Program-made: the position numbers and the translations under genes
Notes under the pieces: generated by a model
Told to the model about the DNA's origin: nothing
The model's input: only the letters and a program-made list of their open reading frames with translations
The model's database searches: none
Origin: Verrucomicrobiota bacterium
GTDB lineage: Bacteria; Verrucomicrobiota; Verrucomicrobiia; Chthoniobacterales; UBA10450
Assembly: GCA_003219175.1 (NCBI GenBank)
Contig: QHPU01000057.1
Location: forward strand, 2,474 to 66,473
Length of the DNA stretch: 64,000 nt
Direction: 5' to 3'
Part shown: piece after piece, positions 19,840 to 37,094 of the stretch
Numbering within the stretch: position 1 is the stretch's first letter
Layout: every line of letters begins with the position of its first letter

Positions 19840-20306
19840 CTAGACGTCAGACTCGATAATGGCGCGATGTCGCCACGCATATCCAAGACCGGAGTAAAGC
19901 GTCAGCGCAACCGTTAACCAGACTAAGGCCGGTCCGGCTTCATTCCAGGCCCGGTGCCACCATTCGCTGCTTGCGCTCTTACCACTCCACTCCGCGGTCG
20001 CCAGCAAGGTGAGAAAGAAAATGACCTTGACTATGCGGCCCAGGCCGGAATCGCCCGTAACGGCACCAGCGAAATGAACGCGGCCGCAATCATGATCTTG
20101 TCGACCAGTGGATCCATTAACTTCCCAAAGTTTGTCACCGTTTGATAACGACGTGCGATCTCGCCATCAAAAAAGTCGGTTATGCCGGCAACCAGAAAAG
20201 TGATTAATGCGGTAGTATGGGCATAGCGCCAGGGCGAACTTAACGCCACCACGAAGAGTACGGTTAAGGCAAGACGGCTGAGCGTGAGACGATTCGCCCA
20301 ATTCAT
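19840..20306 (-). pseudogene. pgsA: CDP-diacylglycerol--glycerol-3-phosphate 3-phosphatidyltransferase, frameshifted and internally shortened
   Basis: ORF 20031..20306 carries the intact CDP-alcohol transferase motif DFFDGEIARRYQTVTNFGKLMDPLVDK, then stops after ..IPAWAA. A different frame continues GLGRIVKVIFFLTLL...LVWLTVALTLYSGLGYAWRH, which is PgsA C-terminus-like, to the stop at 19840-19842. The RE..GLR..GKxKT region (about 25-30 aa) appears to be missing. Confidence 0.55.
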
Positions 20307-22276: not shown

Positions 22277-22365
22277 GTCGAAGCGTTAAATGAGTTAAAG
22301 CGTTGAGGCGGACACAATCCCTCGCCGCGCAAATAACAGCGCTGCAACGGTTCAACGCTTCAACG
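22277..22365. repeat. inverted arrays of a degenerate 8-nt unit (element E1)
   Basis: The left array is GTCGAAgc GTTAAAtga GTTAAAgc GTTGAGgc. A spacer follows, then the right array gcaacg gTTCAACg cTTCAACg. E1 occupies the convergent gnd/dnaE2 spacer and overlaps the dnaE2 stop codon. Confidence 0.75.
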
Positions 22366-25300
22366 AAAGTCATGCGATTCGGAACCGACAAGTCCGTGAT
22401 TTGTTAGCGGCAGGATTTTCTGAGCCTTAATCAGCACCACGTTGTCGGTGTTCTGGACTTCGCCTTCGATCGCAAGGAATGGCTCTTCGGTGATGAGTAA
22501 TCGGCTTTGTTCGAATAAATCCGGCGTGACAATCGCATTCGATACTCCGGTTTCGTCTTCGAGACTGATGAAGACGAAGCCTTTCGCTGTGCCCGGCCGT
22601 TGACGGCAAATCACATTTCCCGCGATGCGGACGATGGAGCCATGTTTTGCCTGCGCCAGATCAGCGGCCCGCCATACATCCGACAATTGTTCGCGCACTA
22701 ATTTCATTGGATGCGGTCCAGTGGTTAGGTCCATCACTTCGTAATCCGCACGGACGCGCTCGGGTAACGTCATCGGCGCTAGCGGAGAATTATACTTCTC
22801 GTCATCCCGAACGGAGCACCGCGTAGTGGAGGGATCCCGTTGCGGCACCTTTCCGCAGTACAACGGAATCCCTTGGTCTGAGCCGGACTGGTGTTTTCGC
22901 TCGGAACGACGGGCTGGAGCAAGCAAATCATCACGCGGGGTTTCCTCCACCTTCCACATCGCCGCGCGGCGATGTTCCGCGAAACAATTCAGCGCTCCCA
23001 AGTTCGCCAGCCGCCGTAGTTCCTCTTTCGTTAGGACCGCGCGCTTCCGAAAATCTTCCAGCGACGTAAAGGGCCGCTCATTGCGTTCCCGCAAAAAATC
23101 CTCGGCGTGTTCGCGCTGCAATCCGCTCACCACGCAAAAGCCCAATCGAATTGTGTCTTCGGCAATAATGGTGCAATTCCATTCCGATTGTGCCACGCAC
23201 ACCGGTTTCACTTTCACTCCGTGCCGCCGCGCATCTTTCACAATTGTCGCCGGTGTGTAAAAACCCATTGGCTGATTGTTAATCAAACTCGCGTAGAACT
23301 CCGCCGGACGATGCGCTTTTAAATAGGCGCTGCCATAAGCCAGAATCGCGAAACTGATGGCATGTGATTCCGGAAATCCGTAGAGCGCAAACGACGTGAT
23401 GGAATGCAAGACTTTCTCGATTACGTCCGGCGCGATTTGGTTGCGTGCCATCGCCTCCCGCAACTTCACACTCACCCGGTTCATCCGCTCTTCCGAGCGA
23501 TGAAAACTGAGCGCGCGCCGCAATTCTTCCGCTTCGTCGCCGGAAAAATTCGCCATAATCATCGCGATCTTCAGCATCTGTTCCTGAAACAATGGGACGC
23601 CGAGCGTTCGTTCCAGTACTGGCTTTAGTCGCTCATCGAAATACGTGACCGGTTCTTTTCCGGCCCGCCGCGCCAGATACGGATGTACCATGTCGCCCTG
23701 GATCGGTCCCGGCCGGATGATCGCGACTTCAATCACGACATCGTAAAAACATTTTGGCTTTAGTCGGGGCAGCGTCGCCATTTGCGCCCGACTTTCGATT
23801 TGGAAAACCCCTATGGTGTCGGCCGTTTGCATCATCTCGAAAGTTTTCGCGTCGTCTTTTGGGATGTGAGCGAGATCGAGAGGGCGACCACGTTCCCGAC
23901 AAAGCTCAAACGCATCCTGCATCACCGACATCATCCCTAGGCCAAGCAGATCGACCTTAACGATTCCGAGATCTTCGCAATCATCCTTGTCCCATTGCGC
24001 CACCACGCGGCCCGGCATGGAGGCGTTTTCCAACGGCACAAACGAGCTCAGTTTGTTCTGGCAAATAATCATCCCGCCGGAGTGCTGCCCGAGATGCCGC
24101 GGCAATCCGTAGATGGCGTGATACAAACCGACGAATGCTGGCATGCGCGGATGCGCTTTCGGCAGACCCGCCTGCTCGATTTGAGCTTCGAGCTCGAGGG
24201 TGTGTGGAAAATCGCCGTTCGCGAACAAATGCGAGAAGCGATCGATCGTGCTCGGTGAAAAATTCAACGCTTTTCCGATTTCGCGAGCTGCGCTTCGCCC
24301 ACGATAGGTGATGACATTCGCGGTCATGGCCGCGCCGTGTTTGCCGTAGCGCCGGTAAATTTCCTGGATGACCCGCTCGCGCCGATTACCGCTCGGTAAA
24401 TCGAGATCTGTTGGCCGCGCTCCCACGGCCTTGCACCATGATGTTGTTTTCGCGGCAAAAATTTACGATGTCCCAGACAATCAGAAAATATCCGGAGAAT
24501 CCGAGTCGAGTGATGAGCGCGAGTTCTTTTTCCAGCTGGCGTTTTACTCTTTTTGAAATTGATTCGTAACGCTGCTGCGCTCCAAACAACACCATCGTGC
24601 GCAAAAACGAATTCATGGTGTGCCCGTCCGGCACCAGATATTCGGGAAATTCGTAGCCGATATTTTCGAGGGAAAACTGCAAGCGATCTGCGAGTCGTTC
24701 GGTGTTCGTGATTGCGTCTGGTAAATCGCGAAAAATCGTGCGCATCTCCGCATCGCTCTTCAAATGACGCTCGGCGTTTTGTGATAAAAGTTTTCCGGCG
24801 AGATCGAGGTGGGTGTGCTCGCGGATGCAGGTGAAAACATCCAGCACCTGGCGACCATAAGGCTTCGCGTACTGCACCCCGTTAGTCGCGATAACCGCTA
24901 ACTGAAATTTCGAAGCAATATCAGTTAATGCGCGATTAACCCGATCTTCGCCGCGCAAAAAATGCCGCTGAACTTCGATGTACACATTCTCGTGCCCAAA
25001 CGCCTCGATGAGACCTTGCGCCCGATCTTCTGCACTCTGGGGAGGGCAGGCTGCCAGCCTGCCGTTTGCGGCAGCCTGCCGCAAACCTGGAACAATACAC
25101 TTCACGCGTGGAGAAATTGCCTCCGGCAAGCTGCCGCACGCCGCAGGCTGGCAGCCTGCGCTCCCCGATCCAAAGAGCGCAACGAGCCCCTGCGCAAATT
25201 CCGGCAGCTCCTCCCATCTCACAGTGCACTCGCCTTTCACACTGCTGCGCAGATGCGCCTGGGTAAGGAGCGAACAAAGATTGGCGTAACCGAGACGGCT

Positions 25301-25540
25301 TGCCACCAGCACCGGCAACAAACTGCCGTCTTCCATCGTTAATTCCGCCCCAGTGATCGACCGCACTTTTTGCTCCCGCGCCGCCACCGAAAATCGCTGC
25401 GCACCATAAACCCCGTTGCGATCGAGCAACGCCAGCGCCGGCGATTCCAATTCCGCCGCCACTTCCACCAGTTGTTCCGGTGAAGATGCGCCGCGCAAAA
25501 AACTGAAGGCACTACAGGCGTGCAGTTCGATGTAGGGCAT
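22360..25540 (-). pseudogene. dnaE2: error-prone DNA polymerase DnaE2, split into two ORFs by an internal deletion/frameshift and carrying a repeat insertion
   Basis: ORF 24386..25540 holds the PHP domain (YIELHACSAFSFLRGAS) through ..IVWDIVNFCRENNIMVQGRGSAAN. ORF 22360..24426 resumes at PTDLDLPSGNRRERVIQEIYRRYGK..ANVITYRGRSA. The about 31 aa expected between GRGSAAN and PDIDLD (SAVCYxLGITxVDP..LLFERFLSxxR) are absent and the frame changes. Confidence 0.75.
25039..25166. mobile_element. ~128-bp MITE-like palindromic element inserted in frame in the dnaE2 PHP-domain region
   Basis: The terminal inverted repeats are ggggagGgcaggctgccagcctgc at the left end and gcaggctggcagcctgcGctcccc at the right end. 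They match over 24 bp with 1 mismatch. The interior has the hairpin gtttgcggcag/ctgccgcaaac and the module cggcaagctgccg. It is read through as GSAGCQPAACGSLPEAISPRVKCIVPGLRQAAANGRLAACPP between the conserved flanks GLVALFG and AEDRAQGLIEAFG. Confidence 0.7.
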
Positions 25541-25545
25541 AAAAA

Positions 25546-25643
25546 GCGTTGAACCGTTAAAGCCTTGAAGAGTTGAAGCGTTCAGCGGAAATGAGCGATG
25601 CCATTCTGCCCCTTCAACGCTTCAACCCTTTTAACGCTTCAAC
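25546..25643. repeat. inverted arrays of the 8-nt unit (element E2) filling the imuB-dnaE2 spacer
   Basis: The left array is gcGTTGAA ccGTTAAA gcCTTGAA gaGTTGAA gcGTTCAG. A ~25-nt spacer follows, then the right array ccTTCAAC gcTTCAAC cctTTTAAC gcTTCAAC. Confidence 0.8.
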
Positions 25644-25648
25644 TATCC

Positions 25649-26689
25649 TCAATCATAAATCCCATCGATCGCCCAGCCCTCCTGATCACAGTAACAGCGC
25701 GCGATAATTCCATTCTCGATTTCCACATCCCATTCCACCCGCGCCCAGGCCTGCTCATCCCACCAGTTTCCTGAAAGCGGATACGGTCCTTCCTGCATCA
25801 CCGTTGCGCCGTCCATCGTTAGTCCGACCCGGACCGCCAGTCCGGCTCGGACCCCCTCAGTGCGCACATGAGCAGGCCGATGACTTTCTAGTAACACTGT
25901 CATCTTTGTGGGTTTTCGAAAACGACGTAGCGGGATAAGTTCCCTCACCGCCGTGCTCTCGCCCGCGCGTCTCTGCCCCGGGGAGAGGGTAGGGTAAGGG
26001 TCATTAGTTTCATGCGTTTCTTCCAGCACCGGTGTGCCGACACGATCCGCGCCGAGTAATCCAACAAGACGCGCCAGCGTCTCATGCAATTGCATCGGAT
26101 CGCGCAATGCGGTTTCGAACAGTCCAAATTGTTGCCGCACTGAGCGTGACGGCTGCGCTTCCAATTCAACCGCCACGATCGGATGTTTCGATGTAAAGTT
26201 TTCCAGATGCGTGTGCAGCATCCGGAAAAGAATGTCTTCGTTGTTGGTCGGCTGCGGAATTTTGAAGATACCTTCGTAGTCCGATTTGTCGGCAAAAGTG
26301 AGCCGCAGCCGCAGTTCTTTGGCGACGAGATAGATCGCGTTTAAACGTGTTGCCAGCTGCTGCAAAAACCGACGCAGGATAAAGAGCAACGGCTCGATCG
26401 TTTCGATTTCATTTTCGAACTCAAAACTTTCGATGAACGATTCGGGCGGCGAAACGAGTTTTAAAATTCGTTCCGCCCGACCATTGGCGCGCTCCCAAAG
26501 TTCAACCACGCGTGCACCCAGTCGTGCCGCCAGATCATCCCGGGGCAAGGCCGCGAGTTGACCAAGGGTATGAATCCCCCACTGATGCAAAATCGAGAGA
26601 ATGCGTTCTGTTTCTTTCGCACGTTCGATCTGTTTGGCCGTGCGTTCCGGCAAAACCGCCGACGGAATCGACAAAACAGGCGCATTCAT
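25649..26689 (-). CDS. imuB: ImuB (Y-family polymerase-like) C-terminal fragment: thumb/HhH, little finger and C-terminal extension
   Basis: ERILSILHQWGIHTLGQLAALPRDDLAARLGARVVELWERANG is the thumb/HhH segment that follows the palm in ImuB/DinB-type proteins. No palm or fingers are present. It lies immediately upstream of dnaE2. There is an in-frame TAA 4 codons upstream of the ATG. Confidence 0.65.
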   Translation of the reverse strand: MNAPVLSIPSAVLPERTAKQIERAKETERILSILHQWGIHTLGQLAALPRDDLAARLGARVVELWERANGRAERILKLVSPPESFIESFEFENEIETIEPLLFILRRFLQQLATRLNAIYLVAKELRLRLTFADKSDYEGIFKIPQPTNNEDILFRMLHTHLENFTSKHPIVAVELEAQPSRSVRQQFGLFETALRDPMQLHETLARLVGLLGADRVGTPVLEETHETNDPYPTLSPGQRRAGESTAVRELIPLRRFRKPTKMTVLLESHRPAHVRTEGVRAGLAVRVGLTMDGATVMQEGPYPLSGNWWDEQAWARVEWDVEIENGIIARCYCDQEGWAIDGIYD

Positions 26690-26717
26690 ACGCCCATTTT
26701 AAGGCGGCTTCCTACTA

Positions 26718-26731
26718 TGTTCAAATGAACA
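26718..26731. promoter_or_regulatory. LexA operator TGTTC-AAAT-GAACA (Verrucomicrobia-type SOS box)
   Basis: It is an exact match to the published Verrucomicrobia LexA motif TGTTC-N4-GAACA. It sits 29 nt upstream of the imuB-C ATG, inside the 28-bp palindrome cctactatgttca-aa-tgaacatagtagg (26711-26738), which abuts the dinG stop codon. Confidence 0.7.
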
Positions 26732-26739
26732 TAGTAGGA

Positions 26740-28722
26740 TTACAAGATTTCCACCGGGCACTTCGGCAGCGCGCTCATGAAGGCTCGGCCGTACGGCTTG
26801 GTAACAATTCGATTATCAAGAATCACGATGATGCCGTGATCACTTCTCGTCCGGATGAGTCGGCCCACCCCTTGTCGCAATTTCAGGATCGCTTCCGGAA
26901 GCGAGTATTCCGTGAAAGCATCGCCACCCTCTGCTTCGATGCTTTCCAGTTTTGCTTCAATCAAAGGATGATCCGGCACGGCGAACGGCAGCCGCGTGAT
27001 AATGACATTGCGCAGCGCGTCACCGGGCACATCAACCCCACCCCAGAAACTGTCGGTCCCAAAAAGTACGCTGCGCGGCGTATTCTTAAACTGCTCGAGC
27101 AATTTCGTCCGGGGCATGCCGCCGCCTTGCACCAGCAGATTCAAATCATGTTCCGCGCAAAAATTTTCCATTCGCACAGCTAGCCCCTGCATCGGCCGAT
27201 AATTGGTGAACAAGACAAAGGCGTGGCCGTCGGTTTTCCCGACGAAATGTTCGATCCAATGCTCGAGCGCGTCTTCGTAGCCGTCCTCGCGCGGGTCCGG
27301 CATTTTGCGGACGACGAACATTTTCATCTGTTCATTGAAATTGAATGGACTGCCGAGCTGGAGCGGCACGGCTTCTTCTGCGCCCACGCGTTTTCGAAAA
27401 TAGGCCAGATCTTTTCGTCCTACTCCCAGAGTGGCGCTGGTCATAATGCAGGTGCAGCCGTCACGAAAAAGGATTTGCCGCAAAGCTGGCGCAATATCGA
27501 TCGGCGCGGCGTTGAGGGTGAGGAGTTGTCCGATTTTACCGGTCCGCTCCACCCAGTAAACGTGATTGCGGGCTGATTGTTCGAGGAAAATTTGTATTCC
27601 GCGACGCGCCTCGAAAAGGCGTCGGCCAAGCTCCTGCAGTTCGGACTTCAACATTTCGTCATCCTGACGTTTGACCACCTCCGCCACGCGTGACTGCAAT
27701 GCAATCAGACGCCCCGTAATGCTGTCGGACACTATATCCGGTAGGCGTACTCGGAACTCGCGGCCTTTGCGAAAATCACAGCGCGTTCCTAATGCTTCAA
27801 AAAATTGATCGACCTCTTCGACAATTTCCGCAGCCAGTCGCACGCCCTCAACGTCGCGCGTTACCGTAAACAGTCCTTTTTTAGAGCGCGCGTTATAGAG
27901 CCGCTGCACCGTCGCGCGTAAGAGATATTGCGAGACGACCGTCCCGATCTGACGCGAAGCGATTTGCTCAACCGTGTGCGCTTCGTCCAAAATCAAAAAA
28001 TCGTCGGGAAAGAGAAATCCGCTTTCACGTTCCATCTGCTCCTCGACGCCTCCCAGGAGCATGAACAGCAGCGTGTGATTGATGACGACGACCTGGGCGT
28101 TCTCGAATTTCCTCCGGGCGCGCTGATAAAAACAGCGATCGCTTTGCCCACACGATTTCTTGGTACAAATGTGGGCCTCGCTACAAACCTGTGCCCAAAC
28201 TTTTGCGTTCGGCTCGAACGACAAATCGCTGAGTGTACCGTCTCGTGTTCGCGCCGCCCACGCAGCAATCTCTTCCAGCTCATTCTGCTCCGGGCCGGTG
28301 AACAGATCGTTCTGCTGTTCGCGCGCGCGCAAAAGCCGGCGCGGGCAAATGTAATTTTGGCGGCCTTTGATCAGCGCCGCATCGAACGTCTCTGCGAGAA
28401 CTTTTTGCAGAATCGGAATGTCTTTGTAGAGAAGTTGCTCCTGCAGATTGATGGTGTGCGTCGAGATGATGGCCTTTTTCTCTTGGTCGAGCGCAAACCG
28501 AACCGCAGGACCCAGATAGGCTAGCGATTTACCCACGCCGGTGCCCGCTTCGACGACTAGATGGCGTTCCTCCTCCAGCGCACGTGCTAACGCCACTGCC
28601 ATTTGTTGTTGCTGCGGACGTCGCTCGAAATTTTTCGCCTTCGCCAAAAGCCCGTCCGCCGAAAAGAGCGATGCCGTCCATTCCAAGAAATCCGAGTCAA
28701 TGGAGTCGCGCAGCGCAATCAT
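26740..28722 (-). CDS. dinG: DinG/XPD-family ATP-dependent DNA helicase (Fe-S type)
   Basis: EAGTGVGKSLAYL (Walker A), DEAHTVE (DEAH box), and a Cys cluster ICPRR..VCSEAHICTKKSCGQSDRCF. Confidence 0.8.
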   Translation of the reverse strand: MIALRDSIDSDFLEWTASLFSADGLLAKAKNFERRPQQQQMAVALARALEEERHLVVEAGTGVGKSLAYLGPAVRFALDQEKKAIISTHTINLQEQLLYKDIPILQKVLAETFDAALIKGRQNYICPRRLLRAREQQNDLFTGPEQNELEEIAAWAARTRDGTLSDLSFEPNAKVWAQVCSEAHICTKKSCGQSDRCFYQRARRKFENAQVVVINHTLLFMLLGGVEEQMERESGFLFPDDFLILDEAHTVEQIASRQIGTVVSQYLLRATVQRLYNARSKKGLFTVTRDVEGVRLAAEIVEEVDQFFEALGTRCDFRKGREFRVRLPDIVSDSITGRLIALQSRVAEVVKRQDDEMLKSELQELGRRLFEARRGIQIFLEQSARNHVYWVERTGKIGQLLTLNAAPIDIAPALRQILFRDGCTCIMTSATLGVGRKDLAYFRKRVGAEEAVPLQLGSPFNFNEQMKMFVVRKMPDPREDGYEDALEHWIEHFVGKTDGHAFVLFTNYRPMQGLAVRMENFCAEHDLNLLVQGGGMPRTKLLEQFKNTPRSVLFGTDSFWGGVDVPGDALRNVIITRLPFAVPDHPLIEAKLESIEAEGGDAFTEYSLPEAILKLRQGVGRLIRTRSDHGIIVILDNRIVTKPYGRAFMSALPKCPVEIL

Positions 28723-28764
28723 GACGTTAAATTAGAGCCTACCCCAACTCGTTGGGAAAGCGTT

Positions 28765-29898
28765 GTGAAGTTATTTGATCGATATATCACCCGGAACTTC
28801 CTGCAGGCTTACCTTTACTGCATCGTCGGGTTCATTGCGATCTGGCTGATCTTCGATGTCAGCGACAGCATTTCGACCTTCTTCGACCTCCACTTCACTC
28901 TCGGGCGCGTCCTGGAATTTTACGCGACCCAGGTCCCACAGATTCTGGTCATCCTGCTGCCAGTCGCGCTCCTTCTCGCCCTCCTTTTCGTTCTCAGTCG
29001 TATGTCGCGCGCCAATGAGATCGTCTCCATGCTGACTGCTGGCACCAGTCTCATCCGCATCCTCACGCCCCTCTTTATTCTCGGTATTCTGACAACGGCC
29101 GCTTGTTTCGCACTAAACTATTCGGTGGCGCCCCACGCCGAAATGGCGCGAAAAATCTTCCTGGAGGAAGATAAAAGTGCTAGCAGCGGCGAAGGACAAA
29201 TTTTCCGCAACCGGCGGGACTCACGCACCTGGTTCATTCAACGTCTCCACCCAAAATCCAACCGGGTCGATAATATCGAGGTGCTGCAACAAGATTCCTC
29301 CGATCACGTCACCGTGGCTTTTTTAGCCGAACGCGCGGAGTTCGACCCGCGGGAACATGCCTGGACGTTGTCGCAGGCGAAGATCGTGCACTACGATGAC
29401 GCCGGTAATATTACTTCCGAATCGATAGAGCCGAGCGTGATCATCCGGCATTGGAGCGAAACACCCTATCGTTTGCGCAGTGCCAACATGCGCGCCGAAC
29501 TGATGAGTCTTCCGGAATTGCGGGACTACTTGACCTTCAACTCCGATTTTCCCGGCACGTTGCTCGCGCCTTTTCGGACACATTACCATTACCGAATTGC
29601 GCTGCCGTGGACATGTCTCGTCGTCGCGCTTATCGCCGCGCCGCTGGGGGTTGGTTTTTCACGCCGCGGTGTTCTTGCCAGCGTCGCCACCGCCATTCTG
29701 CTCGTCTTCGCATTGAACTTTTCCACGCACTTTTTCCTCGCTCTAGGCGAAGGCGACCGTATTCCCGCCTGGATCGCCGGTTGGGCACCTGCCATCGTTT
29801 TTGGAACAATCGGACTGTATTTGCTGCAATTGCGCACTTCCAATCGCGATCCTTCCGACTTTCGCTGGCTTCTGCCGCGCCATATACTTGCGCGATGA
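28765..29898 (+). CDS. LptF/LptG-family LPS export permease
   Basis: VKLFDRYITRNFLQAYLYCIVGFIAIWLIFDV, six TM segments and a large periplasmic loop. The GTG start at 28765 is preferred over the ORF-track start, which overlaps dinG. Confidence 0.75.
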   Translation: MKLFDRYITRNFLQAYLYCIVGFIAIWLIFDVSDSISTFFDLHFTLGRVLEFYATQVPQILVILLPVALLLALLFVLSRMSRANEIVSMLTAGTSLIRILTPLFILGILTTAACFALNYSVAPHAEMARKIFLEEDKSASSGEGQIFRNRRDSRTWFIQRLHPKSNRVDNIEVLQQDSSDHVTVAFLAERAEFDPREHAWTLSQAKIVHYDDAGNITSESIEPSVIIRHWSETPYRLRSANMRAELMSLPELRDYLTFNSDFPGTLLAPFRTHYHYRIALPWTCLVVALIAAPLGVGFSRRGVLASVATAILLVFALNFSTHFFLALGEGDRIPAWIAGWAPAIVFGTIGLYLLQLRTSNRDPSDFRWLLPRHILAR

Positions 29899-30407
29899 TA
29901 AATCCACTGGCGGCCGATTGGCCGATCAAGCAGCGCTCCGAGATTTGCAGCGCCACCCATAGACCGTTCGCGGCTGGGGAACTTTTCTACACCCTGCTCT
30001 ATCGCGAAGGCGACGGCTTCCGGCGCGAAGACTTGAGTGAAGAAGCCTGGCGCAATCGCAATGAAAACATCCAGCCGTTTTCATTTTGGAAAACGAAGTT
30101 CGAACCGGCGCCGCCGCCGGCTCCCGACGCGCTGCCAAAGGAAAACGCAGAGCAACTTTTCCGCCGCCTCATAACGCAGCCGGAGCCCCCGGCAAACGCC
30201 TGCTTTGTTCTAGCCGTCATGCTCGAACGCAAACGCGTCCTCAAACAAGTGCGCACAGAAATTGCCAAGGGTGATCGCCTGCTTATTTACGAGCACCGGG
30301 AAAATGGCGATGTCTTCATTGTGCGCGACCCGCAACTCCGTCTGAGCGAATTGGAACGCGTTCAGGAGGAAGTGGCAACGCTGCTGCGCGGCGGCGCAGC
30401 AACATAA
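29895..30407 (+). CDS. conserved hypothetical protein (170 aa)
   Basis: Its ATG overlaps the lptF/G stop (ATGA). MINPLAADWPIKQRSEICSATHRPF.. No family recognised. Confidence 0.55.
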   Translation: MINPLAADWPIKQRSEICSATHRPFAAGELFYTLLYREGDGFRREDLSEEAWRNRNENIQPFSFWKTKFEPAPPPAPDALPKENAEQLFRRLITQPEPPANACFVLAVMLERKRVLKQVRTEIAKGDRLLIYEHRENGDVFIVRDPQLRLSELERVQEEVATLLRGGAAT

Positions 30408-30519
30408 GGCGACTGGAAGTCAGGCATCTTGGCTGACTCGGCGAGCGGACATCCTGTCCGCTCTATAAGGTCTTTGCTGGGAGCCAAATGAAATGATTAA
30501 AAGAATGCGCCAATAGCCT

Positions 30520-30576
30520 TTCGTCATTTAACATTCGTCATTCGTTTGTCATTTGTCATTCGTGTTTCGTCATTCT
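30520..30576. repeat. degenerate heptamer tandem repeat (CGTCATT)n
   Basis: ttCGTCATT TAACATT CGTCATT CGTTTGTCATT TGTCATT CGTGTTT CGTCATTc, lying in the spacer upstream of dus. Confidence 0.75.
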
Positions 30577-30637
30577 TAAAAAGCATTCACCCTTTTCTCC
30601 GCCTGCACTCGGGCCGGTTTTGTGAGAAAATATTGTG

Positions 30638-31756
30638 ATGTCCACCACCCTGCCCTGGTTCAATGCTGCCTTCCCTCTCTATCTCGCGCCGATGGCGGGC
30701 GTGAGCGACAAGATTTTCCGCCAGATCTGCAAACGCTACGGCGCCGATGTTCTTGTCACTGAATTCGTTTCCGCTGAAGGCATCTTTCGGCGCAACGAAC
30801 GCACCCGCCAATATCTTGATTTCGACGACCGCGAACGGCCGCTCGGGGTACAGCTTTTCGGCGCTAATCCAGCTCACATGGCACAGGCTGCCAAGCAGGT
30901 GGTTGATTGGGTTGGCCCCGATTTCATCGATCTGAATTTCGGCTGCCCCGTTAACAAAGTGGTCGCGAAAAATGGCGGCTCCGCTCTGCTGAAAGATTGC
31001 CCCACCCTCAGCAGCGTGGCCAAAGCGGTAGTGCGAGCGGTCGCGCCTTTGCCCGTTACAGCAAAAATTCGAATTGGTTGGGATGCTAATTCCATCAACG
31101 CGGTGCGCGTCGCGGAAATTCTGCAGGAGTGCGGCATCGCGGCTCTGGCCGTGCACGGCCGGACCCGCGCACAAGGTTATTCTGGCGAAGCAGACTGGCG
31201 CGTCATTGGCGAAGTAGCGGAAGCGGTGACGATACCGGTAATCGGCAACGGCGATTTGTTTTCCGCCCAGGAAGTCGCACGTCGGCGCACTGAAACGAAA
31301 ATTGCCGGCGTAATGATCGGTCGCGCGGCCATGAGCGCACCATGGATTTTCCGGCAGATCAAATATTATCTGGTAACGGGCGAGCCGTTGCCCGCGCCAG
31401 AGTTATCAGAGCGTTGGAATGTGATCATCGAGCATTGCCGCCGTCATGCCGACGATTGGGGCGACGAGGAACAAGCCATCCGTTCCATGCGCGCACACTT
31501 GATGGCCTACTCAAAAAATTTTCCAGAAGCGAAAGCGTTGCGGGAAAAGTTCCAGCACGTTTCGGCTGTCGCCGAGATCGAGGACATTGCGGAGGCGCAC
31601 CAAAGAGCGTCCAGGGAATGGTTGCTTCCAAACGCCAGTCCCCTCCGGCCTGGATGCCCTCCGGGCAGGAAGCGGGCTCGGACCTGCCGGCAGATGGCGC
31701 ACGGCAGCACGCAGCATGTTGAACTTCAGTCCGATAGCGTGATTATAAATTCGTGA
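30638..31756 (+). CDS. dus: tRNA-dihydrouridine synthase
   Basis: LAPMAGVSDKIFRQICKRYGAD, LNFGCP, AVHGRT and GNGD. There is an unusual C-terminal tail of about 40 aa. Confidence 0.85.
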   Translation: MSTTLPWFNAAFPLYLAPMAGVSDKIFRQICKRYGADVLVTEFVSAEGIFRRNERTRQYLDFDDRERPLGVQLFGANPAHMAQAAKQVVDWVGPDFIDLNFGCPVNKVVAKNGGSALLKDCPTLSSVAKAVVRAVAPLPVTAKIRIGWDANSINAVRVAEILQECGIAALAVHGRTRAQGYSGEADWRVIGEVAEAVTIPVIGNGDLFSAQEVARRRTETKIAGVMIGRAAMSAPWIFRQIKYYLVTGEPLPAPELSERWNVIIEHCRRHADDWGDEEQAIRSMRAHLMAYSKNFPEAKALREKFQHVSAVAEIEDIAEAHQRASREWLLPNASPLRPGCPPGRKRARTCRQMAHGSTQHVELQSDSVIINS

Positions 31757-32163
31757 GCGAAACCACGCCCCAAGACACCGCCGGTCCGGCTCGGACCGCC
31801 AGTCCGGATCGAACTGGAATTAAGATCGGCAACGAAAAGTTGATCCGCGTCACGGAAAATGCCGCGCGTCGCCTGAGTTCCCTGCTCGAGAAACAAGGGC
31901 GGCCCGAAGGTGCTTTGCGCCTGGCCGTGATCGGTGGCGGTTGCTCGGGTCTGCAATATAAAATGGACCTAGTAGAAGGCCCTGCCCCACGGGATATTCT
32001 GGTTCATTCTTCCAATGTCCGGATCGTAGTCGATCCCAAGAGTGCGTTGTTCGTCAGCGGCTCGACCCTAGATTTCAGCGATGATCTGCAAAAGGGGGGG
32101 TTTAAAGTCACCAACCCAAACGCCACCTCACATTGCTCCTGCGGCGAAAGCTTCGCCGCGTAA
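31753..32163 (+). CDS. iron-sulfur cluster insertion protein (IscA/ErpA/HesB family)
   Basis: GGGCSGLQYKMDL and the C-terminal NPNATSHCSCGESF. Its GTG start overlaps the dus TGA. Confidence 0.8.
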   Translation: MSETTPQDTAGPARTASPDRTGIKIGNEKLIRVTENAARRLSSLLEKQGRPEGALRLAVIGGGCSGLQYKMDLVEGPAPRDILVHSSNVRIVVDPKSALFVSGSTLDFSDDLQKGGFKVTNPNATSHCSCGESFAA

Positions 32164-32253
32164 AGGAATAGGCGGGATTGTACCGAATAAGAAACGAATC
32201 CCGTTCTCCCGTCCATGTCCAAAATCGTTTTCTTCCATTAGTGTGGTTCATGC

Positions 32254-32277
32254 GCTTCGACGCTTTAACGTTTCAAC
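32254..32277. repeat. half-array (3 units, one orientation) of the 8-nt unit (element E3)
   Basis: gcTTCGAC gcTTTAAC gtTTCAAC, ending 7 nt upstream of the lexA operator. Confidence 0.6.
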
Positions 32278-32284
32278 GCATTAG

Positions 32285-32298
32285 TGTTCATTTGAACT
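32285..32298. promoter_or_regulatory. LexA operator TGTTC-ATTT-GAACT upstream of lexA
   Basis: 13 of 14 positions match TGTTC-N4-GAACA. It lies 33 nt upstream of the lexA ATG, consistent with autoregulation. Confidence 0.65.
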
Positions 32299-32330
32299 TG
32301 CCTTTGCCATAAACGGCGCCATCTTGCCGC

Positions 32331-32972
32331 ATGCTGACCGATCGCCAGCGAAACGTGCTTGATTTCATTCAGAGTGAACAGCGCGAGAAAGGCATCACCC
32401 CAAGCACACGCGAAATCCAAAGTCATTTCGGTTTTGCCAGCCAGACGTCAGTGATGCAATACATCACCACCCTTGAGCGTAAAGGATTCCTCGATCGGCA
32501 TGCGCGCAAAGCACGCGCCCTTGTTACACCGGTCCAAAAGGTCCGCATCACCGATATCCCCATCTACGGACAAATCCCGGCCGGCATGGCAACATTGACC
32601 GAGCAAACCGTACTGGGCCATGTCTCGCTCGATACCCGCTCCGCCAATGCCTCGAAAAATGCACGCATTTTTGCGCTGAAAGTGCGCGGCGATTCCATGA
32701 TAAACGCCCACATCCTAGATGGCGACATTGTGATTTTGGACGATCGCAAAGAGGCTAAGAACGGCGACATTGTCGCAGCGTTAATCGACGGCGAGACAAC
32801 ATTGAAGCGTTTCGTCACCGAACACGGCCGCCCCTATTTGCGGGCCGAAAACCCGCGCTATCCCGATCAACGACCGGCCCATGACCTACGGGTCCAGGGT
32901 GTCATGGTCTCGCTTATTCGCCGCCAAGCCAGTGGGGGAATAAAGCCGGTTTCGCCCGCGAAACGAGGCTAG
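32331..32972 (+). CDS. lexA: LexA repressor
   Basis: N-terminal wHTH (LTDRQRNVLDFI..REIQSHFGFASQTSVMQYITTLERKGFL), Ala-Gly cleavage site (IPAGMA), and the catalytic Ser (GDSM) and Lys (TLKRF). Confidence 0.9.
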   Translation: MLTDRQRNVLDFIQSEQREKGITPSTREIQSHFGFASQTSVMQYITTLERKGFLDRHARKARALVTPVQKVRITDIPIYGQIPAGMATLTEQTVLGHVSLDTRSANASKNARIFALKVRGDSMINAHILDGDIVILDDRKEAKNGDIVAALIDGETTLKRFVTEHGRPYLRAENPRYPDQRPAHDLRVQGVMVSLIRRQASGGIKPVSPAKRG

Positions 32973-33012
32973 GAACACAGGCAGGGCAAGTGCTCCATGT
33001 CTGTGTAAATAA

Positions 33013-33026
33013 TGTTCACTTGAACA
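33013..33026. promoter_or_regulatory. LexA operator TGTTC-ACTT-GAACA upstream of imuA
   Basis: Exact match to TGTTC-N4-GAACA, 28 nt upstream of the imuA ATG. Confidence 0.7.
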
Positions 33027-33053
33027 TATTACCACTCCATGTCATGCTGAGGT

Positions 33054-33683
33054 ATGGCGGCGACCCAGCGTATCATCGATCTCCGCAAACTTCTCACAGA
33101 ACGCTTCCAGCAACCGCCCACTCTCACTGGCGGACAAATCAACGTTCCTCTACTTGAGCAGACGCTTGAGGGCGGTCTGCGCAAAGGCGCAATCACGGAA
33201 ATCATCAGCCCAAATCCGAGCGCCGGCTCGGCCTTGCTCATTCACAGCTTGCTCCAAATTGCGCAACGCGATCGTTTTTTCCTCGCGCTCATTGACGGAC
33301 GGGATTCGTTCGATGTTTACGATGCCGGCTCTTTGCAACATTTGCTCTGGGTCCGTTGCGAAAAGGCAAGCACAGCCGTCAAAGCCGCCGATTTTCTTTT
33401 GCGTGATGGCAATTTCCCACTGGTAATTCTCGATCTTGTTTTGAATCCGGCGGACGAATTGCGTCGCATTCCGGCGACCAGCTGGTATCGCCTGCAGCGA
33501 TTGGTCGAACCGACGCCGACTGCCTTTGTGGTAATAAGCCGCCATAACATGGTCGCGAGCGCGCGGACCAAGATTGTGCTCGAGAACCGCTGGAGCCTCG
33601 CCGATTTGTCGCGCGACAATCCGAGCACGCAATTGCATTTCAAAGTGAGGCGGGCAAAGGCAATCGCCGTAGCTATTGGATAA
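33054..33683 (+). CDS. imuA: ImuA (RecA/SulA-fold translesion-synthesis accessory protein)
   Basis: LEQTLEGGLRKGAITEIISPNPSAGSALLIHSLL.., FLALIDGRDSFD and LVILDLV. Its position between lexA and imuB also fits. Confidence 0.7.
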   Translation: MAATQRIIDLRKLLTERFQQPPTLTGGQINVPLLEQTLEGGLRKGAITEIISPNPSAGSALLIHSLLQIAQRDRFFLALIDGRDSFDVYDAGSLQHLLWVRCEKASTAVKAADFLLRDGNFPLVILDLVLNPADELRRIPATSWYRLQRLVEPTPTAFVVISRHNMVASARTKIVLENRWSLADLSRDNPSTQLHFKVRRAKAIAVAIG

Positions 33684-33684
33684 A

Positions 33685-34242
33685 ATGTTCGCCACCATTT
33701 TGCTGCCAAATTTTTATCTGCAAGCGATCGCGCGCCATCAACCGAAGCTGCGTGCCCAACCACTCGCTGTCCTCGACGACACCGTCATCAAAGCGGTGAT
33801 CCTGCAATTAAACGAAGCGGCGGAAAATGAAGGTGTTCGTGCGGGGATGGCTCCGAGCCAGGCCCTGGCGCGTTGTCTTCATCTCGTAATCAAAGCGCGC
33901 GCGCGCGACTGCGAGCAACAAATCAGCGACATTCTCCTGCATCACGCTTTCATGCTCTCGCCCTTCGTCGAAGCGACCGCCCCCGGCGTTTGCACCGTCC
34001 AATTCATGGAATCCTGTAGCTCGGACCGTTGGTCCCGGGAAAATCCAGATGCTCTCACCGAAAAACTGGGCTGCGTCATCGATCTCCTGGCCCGCTGCGA
34101 TCTGGTCGCCCGCGCCAGCATCGCCGAAAACCCCGACGCCAGTTTTCTCGCCGCTCATCGTGCCGAACCCGTCACCCACGTCACCGAAACCAAAGCATTT
34201 CTCGCCCCGCTCTCGATCGAAACGCTCCTCATGGAAGCTTAA
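33685..34242 (+). CDS. imuB: ImuB N-terminal fragment (palm/fingers only, 185 aa)
   Basis: MFATILLPNFYLQAIARHQPKLRAQPLAVLDD.., GVRAGMAPSQALARC and ..FLAPLSIETL is the N-terminal half of an ImuB/DinB-like fold. It ends 21 nt before the stop of the convergent TPR gene. No thumb or little finger follows. Confidence 0.65.
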   Translation: MFATILLPNFYLQAIARHQPKLRAQPLAVLDDTVIKAVILQLNEAAENEGVRAGMAPSQALARCLHLVIKARARDCEQQISDILLHHAFMLSPFVEATAPGVCTVQFMESCSSDRWSRENPDALTEKLGCVIDLLARCDLVARASIAENPDASFLAAHRAEPVTHVTETKAFLAPLSIETLLMEA

Positions 34243-34263
34243 AAACAAACTGATCCGCCAATT

Positions 34264-36690
34264 TCAACTCTTCGCTAACGGGACGTAGTTTGGGTAGCGG
34301 TCGCGCAGTTGTTTGGCGACGCCGTCGGCCGCTTCGGTTTTGCCGGCGCGGCGGTAGGCGTCGGCCGCTTTATCGAGCGCACGCGGAGTGATGGCAGGAT
34401 CGTCATAGAGTAAAGCTACGCCAGCATAAGCTTTGCCTGCCTCTTCAAACCGTTGACGCTCGAATTGAACATCGCCCTCGAGCAGACGCGCTTCTGCGTT
34501 GACCTTGCCCTCTGGTTGCAAAGTCATGATCTCGGCTGCGATTTTCTCGGCATCATCCGGTTTGTGCGCGGCAATTTTCGTGGCACCAAGTGCAAGTAGC
34601 GCTTTCGCTTTCCCGGCTGCGTCGCCGGAACTTTGCAGATAACGTGAATAAGCGTTTTCCGCCTGATCGTAATGCTTCAGCTTTCCGGAAACGTCGCCGA
34701 GATAAAACCAGAAATCGGGCTTAACGCCCGACAGATTTTCCACGCGTGAAAGAACACCGAGATATTTTTCGGCGAGCGGGTAATTCTTGTCGTTGTAATA
34801 TTCGATCCCGATCCATTCCAATACTTCGGCCGGAATGCTGGCGTTACTGCTAGCAGCGAGAAACGCATCAACCTCGCTGGTGGTCGCCTTGCGGTCGTGC
34901 TGATAGTAACGACTGAGGATGATCCGAAGCGTTGCAGGCGTGTAATATTGTTCCCGATTTAATCGGCGCGAAGTATCGAGAAAAGTAACAGCCCGTTTGT
35001 AATCTTTGCCGTCGAATGCGGCTTTCCCAATGTAGTAATTCGCCTGAGCCACTGCGCTACTCTTCGGATATTCCTTGAGCAGTTGCTGAAAGGTTTGTGC
35101 CATTTCCGGCTCGCGATTTTGCTCACCCAACAGCAGCGCCTTTTGCTGAATCGCGGCCTCGCGTTCCTTTGCCTTTGCATAATTCGCGATGAGAAAGCTT
35201 AGATCGCCGATGGCCGCTTCGGCATTATTACTCTGCTGATACGCCAGCGCGCGTTGCGTCAACGCGATCGGTGTCTGTGGATCATCCGGAAATGTCTTGA
35301 TGAAATAGCTGAATGCATCGATCGCACGTGCGGGATCTTTCGTTTGCACCGCGCACCAGCCCAGCTTATAAGCCGCCTCCGCCCGCAATTTCGGGCTTAG
35401 TTGCGAGGCACGAAGTTCCTCGTAAAACGGCCCTGCCTCCGCGAACTTCTGTTGTTTGTAGAGTGCTTCCGCTTTTAACAACTTGGCCTGGTCTGCTCGT
35501 TCGCTCGTTGGATTGGTCTTCAAAAATTCGTCGACCTCGGCAATGACGGCATTCGGATCCGAATTGTAGATATTGATCAAGCGCTGGTAACGCGCGTCCT
35601 TCGCTTCTTCGCGGTTGGGGAATTTTTCGATGATCTCGCGATAAGCGGCTTCCGCTTCCTGAATATGGCCCAGCTGTCGTTGCGCGTTGGCGACCAGAAG
35701 CATGGCCTCCGGTTTCGCTTCGTCTGGTAATTGCTCGGCCGACTTTTTGTAATCGCTAACTACCTGGGCAAACTGACCGGTCTGGTATTCAAGCCGGAGA
35801 AGGCCGGATTGCGCAATACCCTTCCACTTCCCGGAATCAGCCCGTCCCTTTTGCAGAAGCGCACGCGCTTTCTCTGCCATGGAGCGGTCAATTTTCGCGC
35901 GATCGGCGATCGCAAGATCGAGCGCGATCAATCCCGCGCGGACGGCGGCTTCCGTTCTTGTCGTCGGTTTTTCGGCCTCGGTCGAGAGTGCTTCATATTG
36001 TTTGAGAGCCTCAGCACGGCTGCCGCGCGCCAACAACATCGTACCGGCGGTTGCGCGCGCGTCTTCGCGATACTGGCTCTTCGCTTCCGCCACTTCCAGA
36101 TAAAGCATGAGCGCGTCATCCGCTCGCTTGGTGTTTTCGAGGCAACGGGCCTCGAAATATTTCGCCGAGAGTGCAACCGAGGCGTCTTTCGACTTTGCCG
36201 CGGCTTTGTGGAAAAGAGGTTGCGCAGCGTTGAAATCCTTCTGCGAAAAGGCAAGGACCGCGAGTGCATACGCTGCCGGCCCCGCAAATTCGCTGTCCCC
36301 AAAATCTTCCAGCACTTTCTGGAAGTTCGTCCGGGCGGAACCGTTCTTACCAAGCTGGCGATAGCTTTCGCCTAACCCGAAATACGCATTGCCGCGTCCC
36401 GGAGCATCGGGATAATCACTCAAATATTTCTCGTACTCAGGGATAGCCAGGTCGTACATCTTTCGGCTGAACAGGGCGTTGGCATACTCAAGCTGGCGCG
36501 TGTCACTCGGTTGCTCCGGAATTGATGGGCGTTCCTCCAGCGCCGGCGTTCCCTCGTCAACCGGTAGCGCCCGCGGAACCGGCGGTTCATTCAACGGCAG
36601 AGCGCGACGAACCTGCTGCGCCGATACGACGCCATTCCCACCGAGGAGCGCGGCTACAATGAGACCGGCACTGCGCCGGGATAGCTTCAT
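34264..36690 (-). CDS. secreted multi-TPR protein (808 aa)
   Basis: Signal peptide MKLSRRSAGLIVAALLGGNGVVSAQQ, then TPR-like A/Y/L repeats throughout. Its ATG overlaps the exbD TGA (ATGA). Confidence 0.75.
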   Translation of the reverse strand: MKLSRRSAGLIVAALLGGNGVVSAQQVRRALPLNEPPVPRALPVDEGTPALEERPSIPEQPSDTRQLEYANALFSRKMYDLAIPEYEKYLSDYPDAPGRGNAYFGLGESYRQLGKNGSARTNFQKVLEDFGDSEFAGPAAYALAVLAFSQKDFNAAQPLFHKAAAKSKDASVALSAKYFEARCLENTKRADDALMLYLEVAEAKSQYREDARATAGTMLLARGSRAEALKQYEALSTEAEKPTTRTEAAVRAGLIALDLAIADRAKIDRSMAEKARALLQKGRADSGKWKGIAQSGLLRLEYQTGQFAQVVSDYKKSAEQLPDEAKPEAMLLVANAQRQLGHIQEAEAAYREIIEKFPNREEAKDARYQRLINIYNSDPNAVIAEVDEFLKTNPTSERADQAKLLKAEALYKQQKFAEAGPFYEELRASQLSPKLRAEAAYKLGWCAVQTKDPARAIDAFSYFIKTFPDDPQTPIALTQRALAYQQSNNAEAAIGDLSFLIANYAKAKEREAAIQQKALLLGEQNREPEMAQTFQQLLKEYPKSSAVAQANYYIGKAAFDGKDYKRAVTFLDTSRRLNREQYYTPATLRIILSRYYQHDRKATTSEVDAFLAASSNASIPAEVLEWIGIEYYNDKNYPLAEKYLGVLSRVENLSGVKPDFWFYLGDVSGKLKHYDQAENAYSRYLQSSGDAAGKAKALLALGATKIAAHKPDDAEKIAAEIMTLQPEGKVNAEARLLEGDVQFERQRFEEAGKAYAGVALLYDDPAITPRALDKAADAYRRAGKTEAADGVAKQLRDRYPNYVPLAKS

Positions 36691-37094
36691 TTTGCGGTCG
36701 CGAAGGCGACGTTGGTAATTCCAGACTCGCTGCAAATATTCAAAATGTTAACGACGTTTTTGTAGGCCCCGCTCTCATCACCGCGAATCACTACTGCCTG
36801 CTCTGGATATAATTTCACCAGGTCTTGCAATAGCTTGCCCAACTCCGACCCCGACATGGTTCGGCGATTCACAATCACGCTCCCATCCGTCTTCACATTC
36901 ACCACCACATCGCCTGGCGGCGCCATTTTCTCCTTCGCCGCGGACGCTTTTGGGACTTTGACATCGAGCTCGTTTTCGTTGCGCGCAGCGCTCCACGTCA
37001 GCAAAAAGAAAATCAACAACAGCATTAACACGTCGACCAGCGGCGCCAGCTGAATTCCCGGATGCTGCAACGCCGTGCGAGTGCGGAAGTTCAT
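36687..37094 (-). CDS. exbD: biopolymer transport protein ExbD/TolR
   Basis: GIQLAPLVDVLMLLLIFFLLT, then a periplasmic domain (VVVNVKTDGSVIVN). Confidence 0.85.
   Translation of the reverse strand: MNFRTRTALQHPGIQLAPLVDVLMLLLIFFLLTWSAARNENELDVKVPKASAAKEKMAPPGDVVVNVKTDGSVIVNRRTMSGSELGKLLQDLVKLYPEQAVVIRGDESGAYKNVVNILNICSESGITNVAFATAK

Follow-up and report, generated by a model that had tools for sequence, protein, structure and literature searches.

ImuB encoded by two genes: a conserved ImuA-ImuB-DnaE2 mutasome variant in soil Chthoniobacterales

The DnaE2 mutasome, which has ImuB as its hub, brings about the mutagenesis induced by DNA damage, with drug resistance in mycobacteria as one of its outcomes. 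The locus described here raises the question what it means when the gene for this hub is found in two pieces. It lies in a stretch of 64,000 nt of contig QHPU01000057.1 (assembly GCA_003219175.1; hereafter the window) of a Verrucomicrobiota bacterium, in which the genes were identified from a listing of open reading frames (ORFs) and from profile scans. The + strand carries lexA, an imuA-like gene and the first half of imuB (imuB-N), and the - strand carries, 7 kb apart from these, the second half (imuB-C) and dnaE2. The original prediction described this as one cassette in two units on opposite strands, with imuB halved, and every gene was indeed recovered at its place. We conclude that the conserved two-gene ImuB is a real variant of the known LexA-regulated ImuA-ImuB-DnaE2 mutasome. 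The best overall explanation, to which we assign a probability of roughly three in four, is an ancient fission of imuB that gave a two-polypeptide ImuB encoded in two SOS-controlled units, the sequence gaps that are private to this assembly being artefacts.

The first unit consists of lexA (32331-32972, +; TIGR00498 at 2e-48, with LexA_DNA_bind and Peptidase_S24 domains), the imuA-like gene (33054-33683, +) and imuB-N (33685-34242, +, with an alternative TTG start at 33676). The imuA-like gene encodes a RecA fold with a degenerate Walker A motif; it has a weak RecA match and matches ImuA_translesion (NF033429) at 5e-5, which is under the cut-off of that model, and in the related loci it is always located between lexA and imuB-N. 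With its 185 aa, imuB-N covers the half of ImuB that forms palm and fingers (it matches positions 4-141 of the 148 in Pfam IMS). The second unit starts with imuB-C (25649-26689, -), the 346 aa of which comprise the thumb, the little finger and the C-terminal part (IMS_C; DinB profile positions ~190-358). It is followed, after a spacer (25541-25648, -), by the gene of the error-prone DNA polymerase dnaE2 (22360-25540, -), which is present as two ORFs (24386-25540 and 22360-24426) that match NF004225 at positions 5-358 and 394-901.

The proposal that the fragments are complementary halves of ImuB was confirmed by profile alignment. A profile of 26 N-piece sequences aligned in hhalign to columns 2-178 of a profile of full-length ImuB (n=11), and a profile of 30 C-piece sequences aligned, from its own column 24 onwards, to columns 174-494, both at a probability of 100%; the two pieces overlap by at most 5 columns. 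The same picture emerged from a tblastn comparison with P0252 (492 aa), the nearest unsplit protein that was found, in which the N piece corresponds to residues 1-173 (48% identical) and the C piece to residues 179-492. The cut is positioned at profile column ~175, which is the boundary between palm and thumb. The N piece ends 4-9 residues past the last homologous column, and the C piece starts with a leader of 20-29 aa; the first 23-29 residues of this piece are without counterpart in whole ImuBs, whereas its C-terminal 300 residues align to full-length ImuB. Throughout the clade, the place of a single ImuB polypeptide of ~480-530 aa is taken by two ORFs of ~176 aa and ~320-390 aa. Reconstitution by a split intein or by trans-splicing was considered and rejected, as there are no intein halves at the break, where the N end and the C leader have the lengths just given, and a scan of 20-38 kb against Rfam gave no match.

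The domain content of the two pieces is in line with this division. The N piece has kept the positions that are conserved in the ImuB family (45% profile identity to full-length ImuB) and is without the catalytic aspartates: in an alignment to E. coli DinB (4irc), D8 and D10 correspond to I5 and L7, because DinB F13 pairs with F10 of the N piece. The C piece contains a putative clamp motif, QQFGLFE, in which Q187, F188, F191 and E192 are invariant among the 30 C pieces and G189 and L190 nearly so. A RecA-NT-like helix and strand, an H-R-P-D-x-F motif and a C-terminal SGNWWDE...DGIYD domain are conserved in the same sequences, with the SGNWWDE motif being invariant. The AlphaFold model of the C piece, which is confident in the little finger only, shows a helix (198-211) and a beta-rich domain (302-384), and with this model Foldseek retrieved Y-family polymerases at 1e-9. 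A sequence search of solved structures yielded no ImuB, with only a weak DinB match for the N piece and none for the C piece. Taken together, the Y-family fold of palm, fingers, thumb and little finger is complete, but shared between two polypeptides.

The division is not a peculiarity of this genome. For 334 relatives, taking one genome per GTDB species, the best 80 loci (N piece 51-92% identical) were examined, and all 80 have the order lexA-imuA-imuB-N with an N-piece ORF that ends at 172-239 aa (median 176). These loci belong to Chthoniobacterales, Ca. Udaeobacter or unnamed soil Verrucomicrobia, save three records with other phylum names; the latter (L045, L063 and L071) show a typical Chthoniobacterales lexA-imuA-imuB-N in bins labelled Limnocylindria, Angelobacter and Dormiibacterota, and are probably binning contaminants. 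Among homologues, the 120 closest to the N piece (67-98% identical) all measure 165-212 aa, the 120 closest to the C piece 337-420 aa, and the C pieces of the Udaeobacter type 317-364 aa. The complete order dnaE2(-) imuB-C(-) dinG(-) ... lexA imuA imuB-N(+) TPR(-), in which the last gene encodes tetratricopeptide repeats (TPR), recurs in no fewer than 14 species, the most distant of them at 55% identity, and the order of the genes between the halves is conserved down to ~55% imuB-N identity. Wherever the full length of dnaE2 can be read in relatives and conspecifics, the gene is intact (1052-1100 aa). The exact imuB-N protein occurs on 26 contigs and the exact ImuA on 21. Both junctions are reproduced in at least 10 independent conspecific assemblies, made from different samples and with different assemblers, which excludes a misassembly of the split. 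We conclude that imuB was split long ago and that the split has become fixed in 80 or more species of soil Chthoniobacterales, Candidatus Udaeobacter among them.

Both halves of ImuB are under purifying selection. In pairwise Nei-Gojobori (NG86) comparisons of eleven species pairs, the ratio of non-synonymous to synonymous substitution rates (dN/dS) amounted to 0.07-0.24 for imuB-N and 0.09-0.24 for imuB-C, with 0.37 on the branch of the window, as compared to 0.10-0.25 for imuA and 0.05-0.12 for dinG.

The two units also share predicted LexA control. The motif TGTTC-N4-GAACA, which we take to be the LexA motif of Verrucomicrobia, as reported by Erill et al. 2016 and in view of its conservation here, occurs 7 times in the window at up to one mismatch, against 1.8 expected. 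A perfect match precedes imuA (TGTTCACTTGAACA, 33013-33026, +), and a second one precedes imuB-C (TGTTCAAATGAACA, 26718-26731, -), where it lies within a palindrome (26710-26739, -) that is perfect over 14+14 nt and is located between the stop of dinG and the ATG of imuB-C. The claim that the C half has its own ATG and a consensus LexA box therefore stands. The box before lexA (TGTTCATTTGAACT, 32285-32298, +) has one mismatch, and nearly the same imperfect box is found ~47-52 nt 5' of lexA in most of the related loci (L002-L086). In the majority of the 80 species loci, ~42 nt separate the imuA box from the start downstream of it, and the imuB-C box is located 41-45 nt 5' of the start in ~15 distinct loci, in all but one of which it is perfect; it was not found in three other loci. 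Predicted boxes before imuA, imuB-C and, in imperfect form, lexA are thus conserved across species. The difference between the imperfect lexA operator and the perfect palindromes of the other two suggests a deliberately weaker autoregulation of lexA.

The arrangement of the boxes points to the way in which control may be exerted. Of the four spacer bases the last two are always TT, and therefore a TTGAAC occupies positions -35 to -30 relative to the start codon; before imuB-C it forms a -35-like element (26724-26719, -) that is accompanied by a -10-like TAAAAT (26701-26696, -) at -12 to -7. Because a TTGAAC half-box is found 30-35 nt before the start in each unit, LexA would occlude the -35 element, and both transcripts are probably leaderless. 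Between the box and the start of imuB-C the sequence is conserved across species (L003, L004 and L001), in contrast to what lies upstream of the box. When the window is compared with L003 (26689-26739 versus L003 1784-1833, leaving aside the L003 contig end), to which it is otherwise >99.9% identical, most of the few differences are located in the flanks of the imuB-C operator, the start codon and the tenth codon. Five changes affect the 30-nt palindrome, which is perfect in the window only; the start is ATG in the window and GTG in the relatives, and there is one S10P change.

The window deviates from its conspecifics in three gaps. In imuB-C (-), 117 nt are missing at 26012/26013, by which the conserved HRPDAFRMxPFVWEF is lost in frame; the protein is 39 aa shorter than the 385 aa of the conspecifics. 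In dnaE2 (-), 104 nt are missing at 24408/24409, which shifts the frame and removes ~35 residues before the PDIDLD motif. The frameshift that had been noticed in dnaE2 is thus real as a break in the reading frame, but it is not a simple frameshift. The third gap, of 120 nt with an 8-nt filler TAGTCAAG (20025-20034, -), truncates a CDP-alcohol phosphatidyltransferase (an ORF of 91 aa in the window versus 192 aa in relatives), and past this position the identity to conspecifics drops from >99.4% to 96%. A scaffold from the same study (L173/L176) is 99.95-100% identical to window 47094-20034; the 20.4 kb of 47094-26687 are free of gaps, and all three gaps fall within the next 7 kb.

How did the two units arise? 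All unsplit relatives for which enough flanking sequence is available have the colinear order (lexA-)imuA-imuB-dnaE2, at up to ~48% identity, so the fused colinear state is taken to be ancestral. The geometry of the split is the product expected from one inversion with a break inside imuB, which would be the cheapest route. To this extent the inversion that had been predicted is plausible; what did not hold is that the event was recent or specific to this genome. There are no inverted repeats at the junctions, and the only notable inverted pair is formed by two LexA boxes, none of which lies at 34242. Neither would inverting the segment back, which had been supposed to restore a colinear cassette, yield an open frame, since a stop codon, the 21-nt spacer behind imuB-N, the 50-nt operator/promoter and 23-29 leader codons would remain between the halves. 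A programmed invertible segment was rejected, given that junction inverted repeats are absent, no recombinase domain is encoded between the halves and all assemblies show one orientation. A duplication of the imuA promoter was likewise rejected as the source of the imuB-C operator: an alignment of the two upstream regions gave nothing significant beyond the box (score 42 versus a shuffle maximum of 36), so that they share the box alone.

We propose the following course of events and mode of action. In the ancestor of the soil Chthoniobacterales clade (Ca. Udaeobacter and relatives), a colinear lexA-imuA-imuB-dnaE2 cassette would have been broken at the palm/thumb boundary of imuB, most simply by a single inversion, and the break would then have been fixed. 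One unit would contain lexA and, behind an operator, imuA and imuB-N, the latter encoding a catalytically dead palm/fingers of ~176 aa. The other would contain an operator, imuB-C with its new leader of 20-29 aa, and dnaE2. Upon DNA damage both LexA-repressed units would be derepressed, and the mutasome would be assembled from four polypeptides instead of three. ImuB-C would supply the parts that the literature calls the irreducible ImuB hub, while ImuB-N may either join ImuB-C non-covalently or act together with ImuA; a physical reassembly of the ImuB halves is what we infer from their sequences.

A number of observations weigh against this explanation. The AlphaFold model of the N piece is poor (predicted local distance difference test score, pLDDT, 54.5) and its Foldseek matches, Y-family proteins throughout, are weak (1e-3). 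A metagenome scan with the single unsplit protein P0252 gave no match; a profile scan gave 80 unsplit loci, none of which shares gnd, moaE, dinG, TPR, dus or lptFG with the split clade, and with no outgroup found that has the same flanks, the inversion is only the most economical geometry. Moreover, the operator and leader of imuB-C cannot predate the break, and a simple inversion leaves the operator unexplained. In some members of the clade the two units are unlinked, and in others imuB-C was not found beside dinG within the DNA examined, so that the co-occurrence of the halves is not established genome by genome. Finally, the gaps in imuB-C and dnaE2 are clean joins with 2-nt microhomology in one operon, as real deletions would give.

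The last point leads to the alternatives. If the 104-nt and 117-nt gaps are real, they would mark a strain-level decay in which the loss of imuB-C and dnaE2 has begun, in accordance with the earlier reading of a cassette caught in decay. We regard this as possible, yet clearly the less probable alternative; it is given this much weight because the joins are clean and two gaps fall in one operon, which measures 4.3 kb. The gaps are in addition flanked by imperfect direct repeats, the remaining differences from L003 cluster mostly in the imuB-C operator and start codon, and the dN/dS of imuB-C is highest on the branch of the window. However, in conspecific scaffolds with 99.95-100% identity imuB-C is intact at 385 aa and dnaE2 at 1094 aa; the intact imuB-C is present in one conspecific metagenome-assembled genome and at least 14 conspecific contigs, and the shortened form on one contig only. 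The three gaps share one size class (104-120 nt), sister scaffolds from the same study have N-gaps here (100 N inside dnaE2 in L174), and the third gap truncates a housekeeping gene where the strain switches, which makes an artefact likelier than decay. The three gaps are therefore most likely artefacts of scaffold joining, the third one probably being a join between strains. A recent inversion, or a misassembly of this contig, would be suggested by the layout alone, but is refuted by the recurrence of the same two junctions in conspecific assemblies and in 80 species, and we attach practically no credence to it. It is also improbable that the halves derive from two copies of the cassette, by an inverted duplication followed by complementary loss. 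This would account for the imuB-C operator having the same spacing and -35 overlap as that of imuA, and for the faint A-P-(V)-L-S-I resemblance between the broken ends in the window (APLSIETL and APVLSIPSAVL), on which the earlier suggestion of two different imuB copies was founded. The fixed spacing of the box is nevertheless accounted for by promoter function, and past the box the upstream regions have nothing in common. The end resemblance is limited to one group: the APVLSI leader occurs in one subclade only, Udaeobacter-type leaders read MKRS..., and the N piece ends in LSIETL here and in LPIETL in most relatives. In addition, the pieces hardly overlap on the ImuB profile and are at similar distances from the same unsplit relatives. 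Of the readings that were put forward originally, a two-piece, separately SOS-controlled ImuB is the one that holds, the halves being complementary and constrained and the boxes conserved.

Regarding function, ImuB-C alone might be a working, minimal-hub ImuB, with imuB-N kept for another job with ImuA or with LexA/RecA. Reduced ImuBs with only the thumb, the little finger and the ImuB-C domain do exist (PMC12926913), imuB-N is always coupled to imuA and not to imuB-C, and in one relative (L169) an imuB-C/dnaE2 unit is present without lexA-imuA-imuB-N nearby. On the other hand, the conserved ImuB-family positions are retained in imuB-N, its identity to the window varies from species to species in parallel with that of imuB-C, and both units are under the same predicted LexA control, which makes this alternative rather unlikely in our view. 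Somewhat more doubtful still is a form of it in which ImuB-N and ImuA constitute an SOS module that acts independently of ImuB-C/DnaE2, for example on RecA filaments or the clamp. If true, it would account for the persistence of an intact, LexA-controlled lexA-imuA-imuB-N even in genomes with an unlinked second unit, and the role of the dead ImuB polymerase core would become separable and testable.

Under the favoured explanation of a two-polypeptide ImuB, a comparison with known systems shows both likeness and difference. The locus shares with the canonical LexA-regulated imuA-imuB-dnaE2 cassette the same four gene families and LexA operators, with lexA often upstream, a dead ImuB with a clamp motif and a C-terminal region that binds ImuA and DnaE2, and the position of dnaE2 directly downstream of the C-terminal part of ImuB. 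It differs in that it is not a colinear operon: imuB is present as two genes, cut at the palm/thumb boundary, that are located on opposite strands 7 kb apart or are unlinked, each unit has its own operator and promoter, and five housekeeping genes lie in between. In mycobacteria, imuA'-imuB and dnaE2 form a cassette that is split between genes (cited in PMC6511836). There too, two dispersed units still work together; however, the cut leaves ImuB whole, whereas here it runs inside imuB. The DnaE2X systems combine an inactive PolY with a stand-alone ImuB-C protein and "may be considered a split ImuB" (PMC12926913). They resemble the present locus in having a Y-family part and an ImuB C-terminal part as separate proteins beside DnaE2, but their division comes after the little finger, i.e. 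after a whole PolY core, they have RecA and not ImuA, and they were proposed to be ancestral. Here the cut is between palm and thumb, there is an imuA-like gene, and the arrangement goes back to a fused ImuB. Even the most reduced ImuBs retain the thumb, the little finger and the ImuB-C domain, of which the thumb and ImuB-C contact DnaE2 (PMC12926913). The C piece has exactly the same domain content, while the palm/fingers have not been lost here and persist as a separate, constrained gene. The survey in question discarded fragments <200 aa and used complete genomes only, so it would miss the N piece and miscount the clade. In the literature searched, the coverage of which was incomplete, no description of a palm/thumb split of ImuB was found.

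The surroundings of the two units can be described briefly. Behind imuB-N, a 21-nt spacer (34243-34263) separates its stop from a convergent TPR/YbgF-like gene (34264-36735, -), a junction that is the same in L171-L180 and in many species. The block that separates the two halves (26740-32163) contains a dinG/yoaA-like helicase gene (26740-28722, -), lptF/G (ending at 29898, +), a hypothetical gene, dus (30635-31756, +) and an iscA-like gene (31753-32163, +). In a Udaeobacter-type relative (L167 2782-9756), a 7-kb island is located between dinG and imuB-C; it carries genes for a ResIII helicase with a nucleotidyltransferase domain, a HEPN protein and an N6/N4 DNA methyltransferase, and looks like a defence island. 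Within dnaE2, a C-terminal part of ~130 nt (22791-22922, around QSGSDQGIPLYCGKVPQRDPSTTRCSVRDDEKYNS) gives no alignment to the 92%-identical gene of L004, and the ORF that holds it is matched by the error-prone polymerase profile at two places apart from each other; the part is apparently a hypervariable linker.

The spacer between imuB-C and dnaE2 contains a long hairpin, made up of the 8-mers GTTGAAGC and GCTTCAAC, with a minimum free energy of -46.3 kcal/mol (z = -5.8), the end of which lies immediately 5' of the dnaE2 ATG. Its role may be to attenuate the transcript or to stabilise it, and the above-mentioned Rfam scan gave no match here either. Tandem 8-nt units (GNTTCAAC / GTTGAANC) are found at 22277-22364, 25548-25643 and 32250-32277, only beside mutasome genes, and the pattern AACGNTTCAAC occurs in 7 exact copies in the window against 0.19 expected. 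The AACGNTTCAAC motif is absent in the nearest other species and present in L169 at the same spacer. Other relatives have different hairpins, similar to repetitive extragenic palindromes (REP), in the imuB-C/dnaE2 spacer (GTCATCCTGAGCG... and GTCATCGATTACGAGC...), and L021 and L059 have none. As a candidate regulatory site AACGNTTCAAC was rejected, since it is a REP-like repeat and is not conserved in the nearest species.

For studies of gene decay, the window holds a warning: three private gaps of ~110 nt in a curated metagenome-assembled genome mimic pseudogenisation, and scans for the latter may be misled by them. For the biology of ImuB the consequences are wider. Ca. Udaeobacter is widely reported among the most abundant soil bacteria, and we know of no established function for the catalytically dead palm/fingers of ImuB. 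In this lineage, which is abundant in soil, precisely this dead polymerase core is set apart as a protein of its own that is under selection. As ImuB-N is under purifying selection clade-wide while being cut from the hub, the N domain matters on its own, and the clade provides two natural constructs with which interaction and complementation can be tested.

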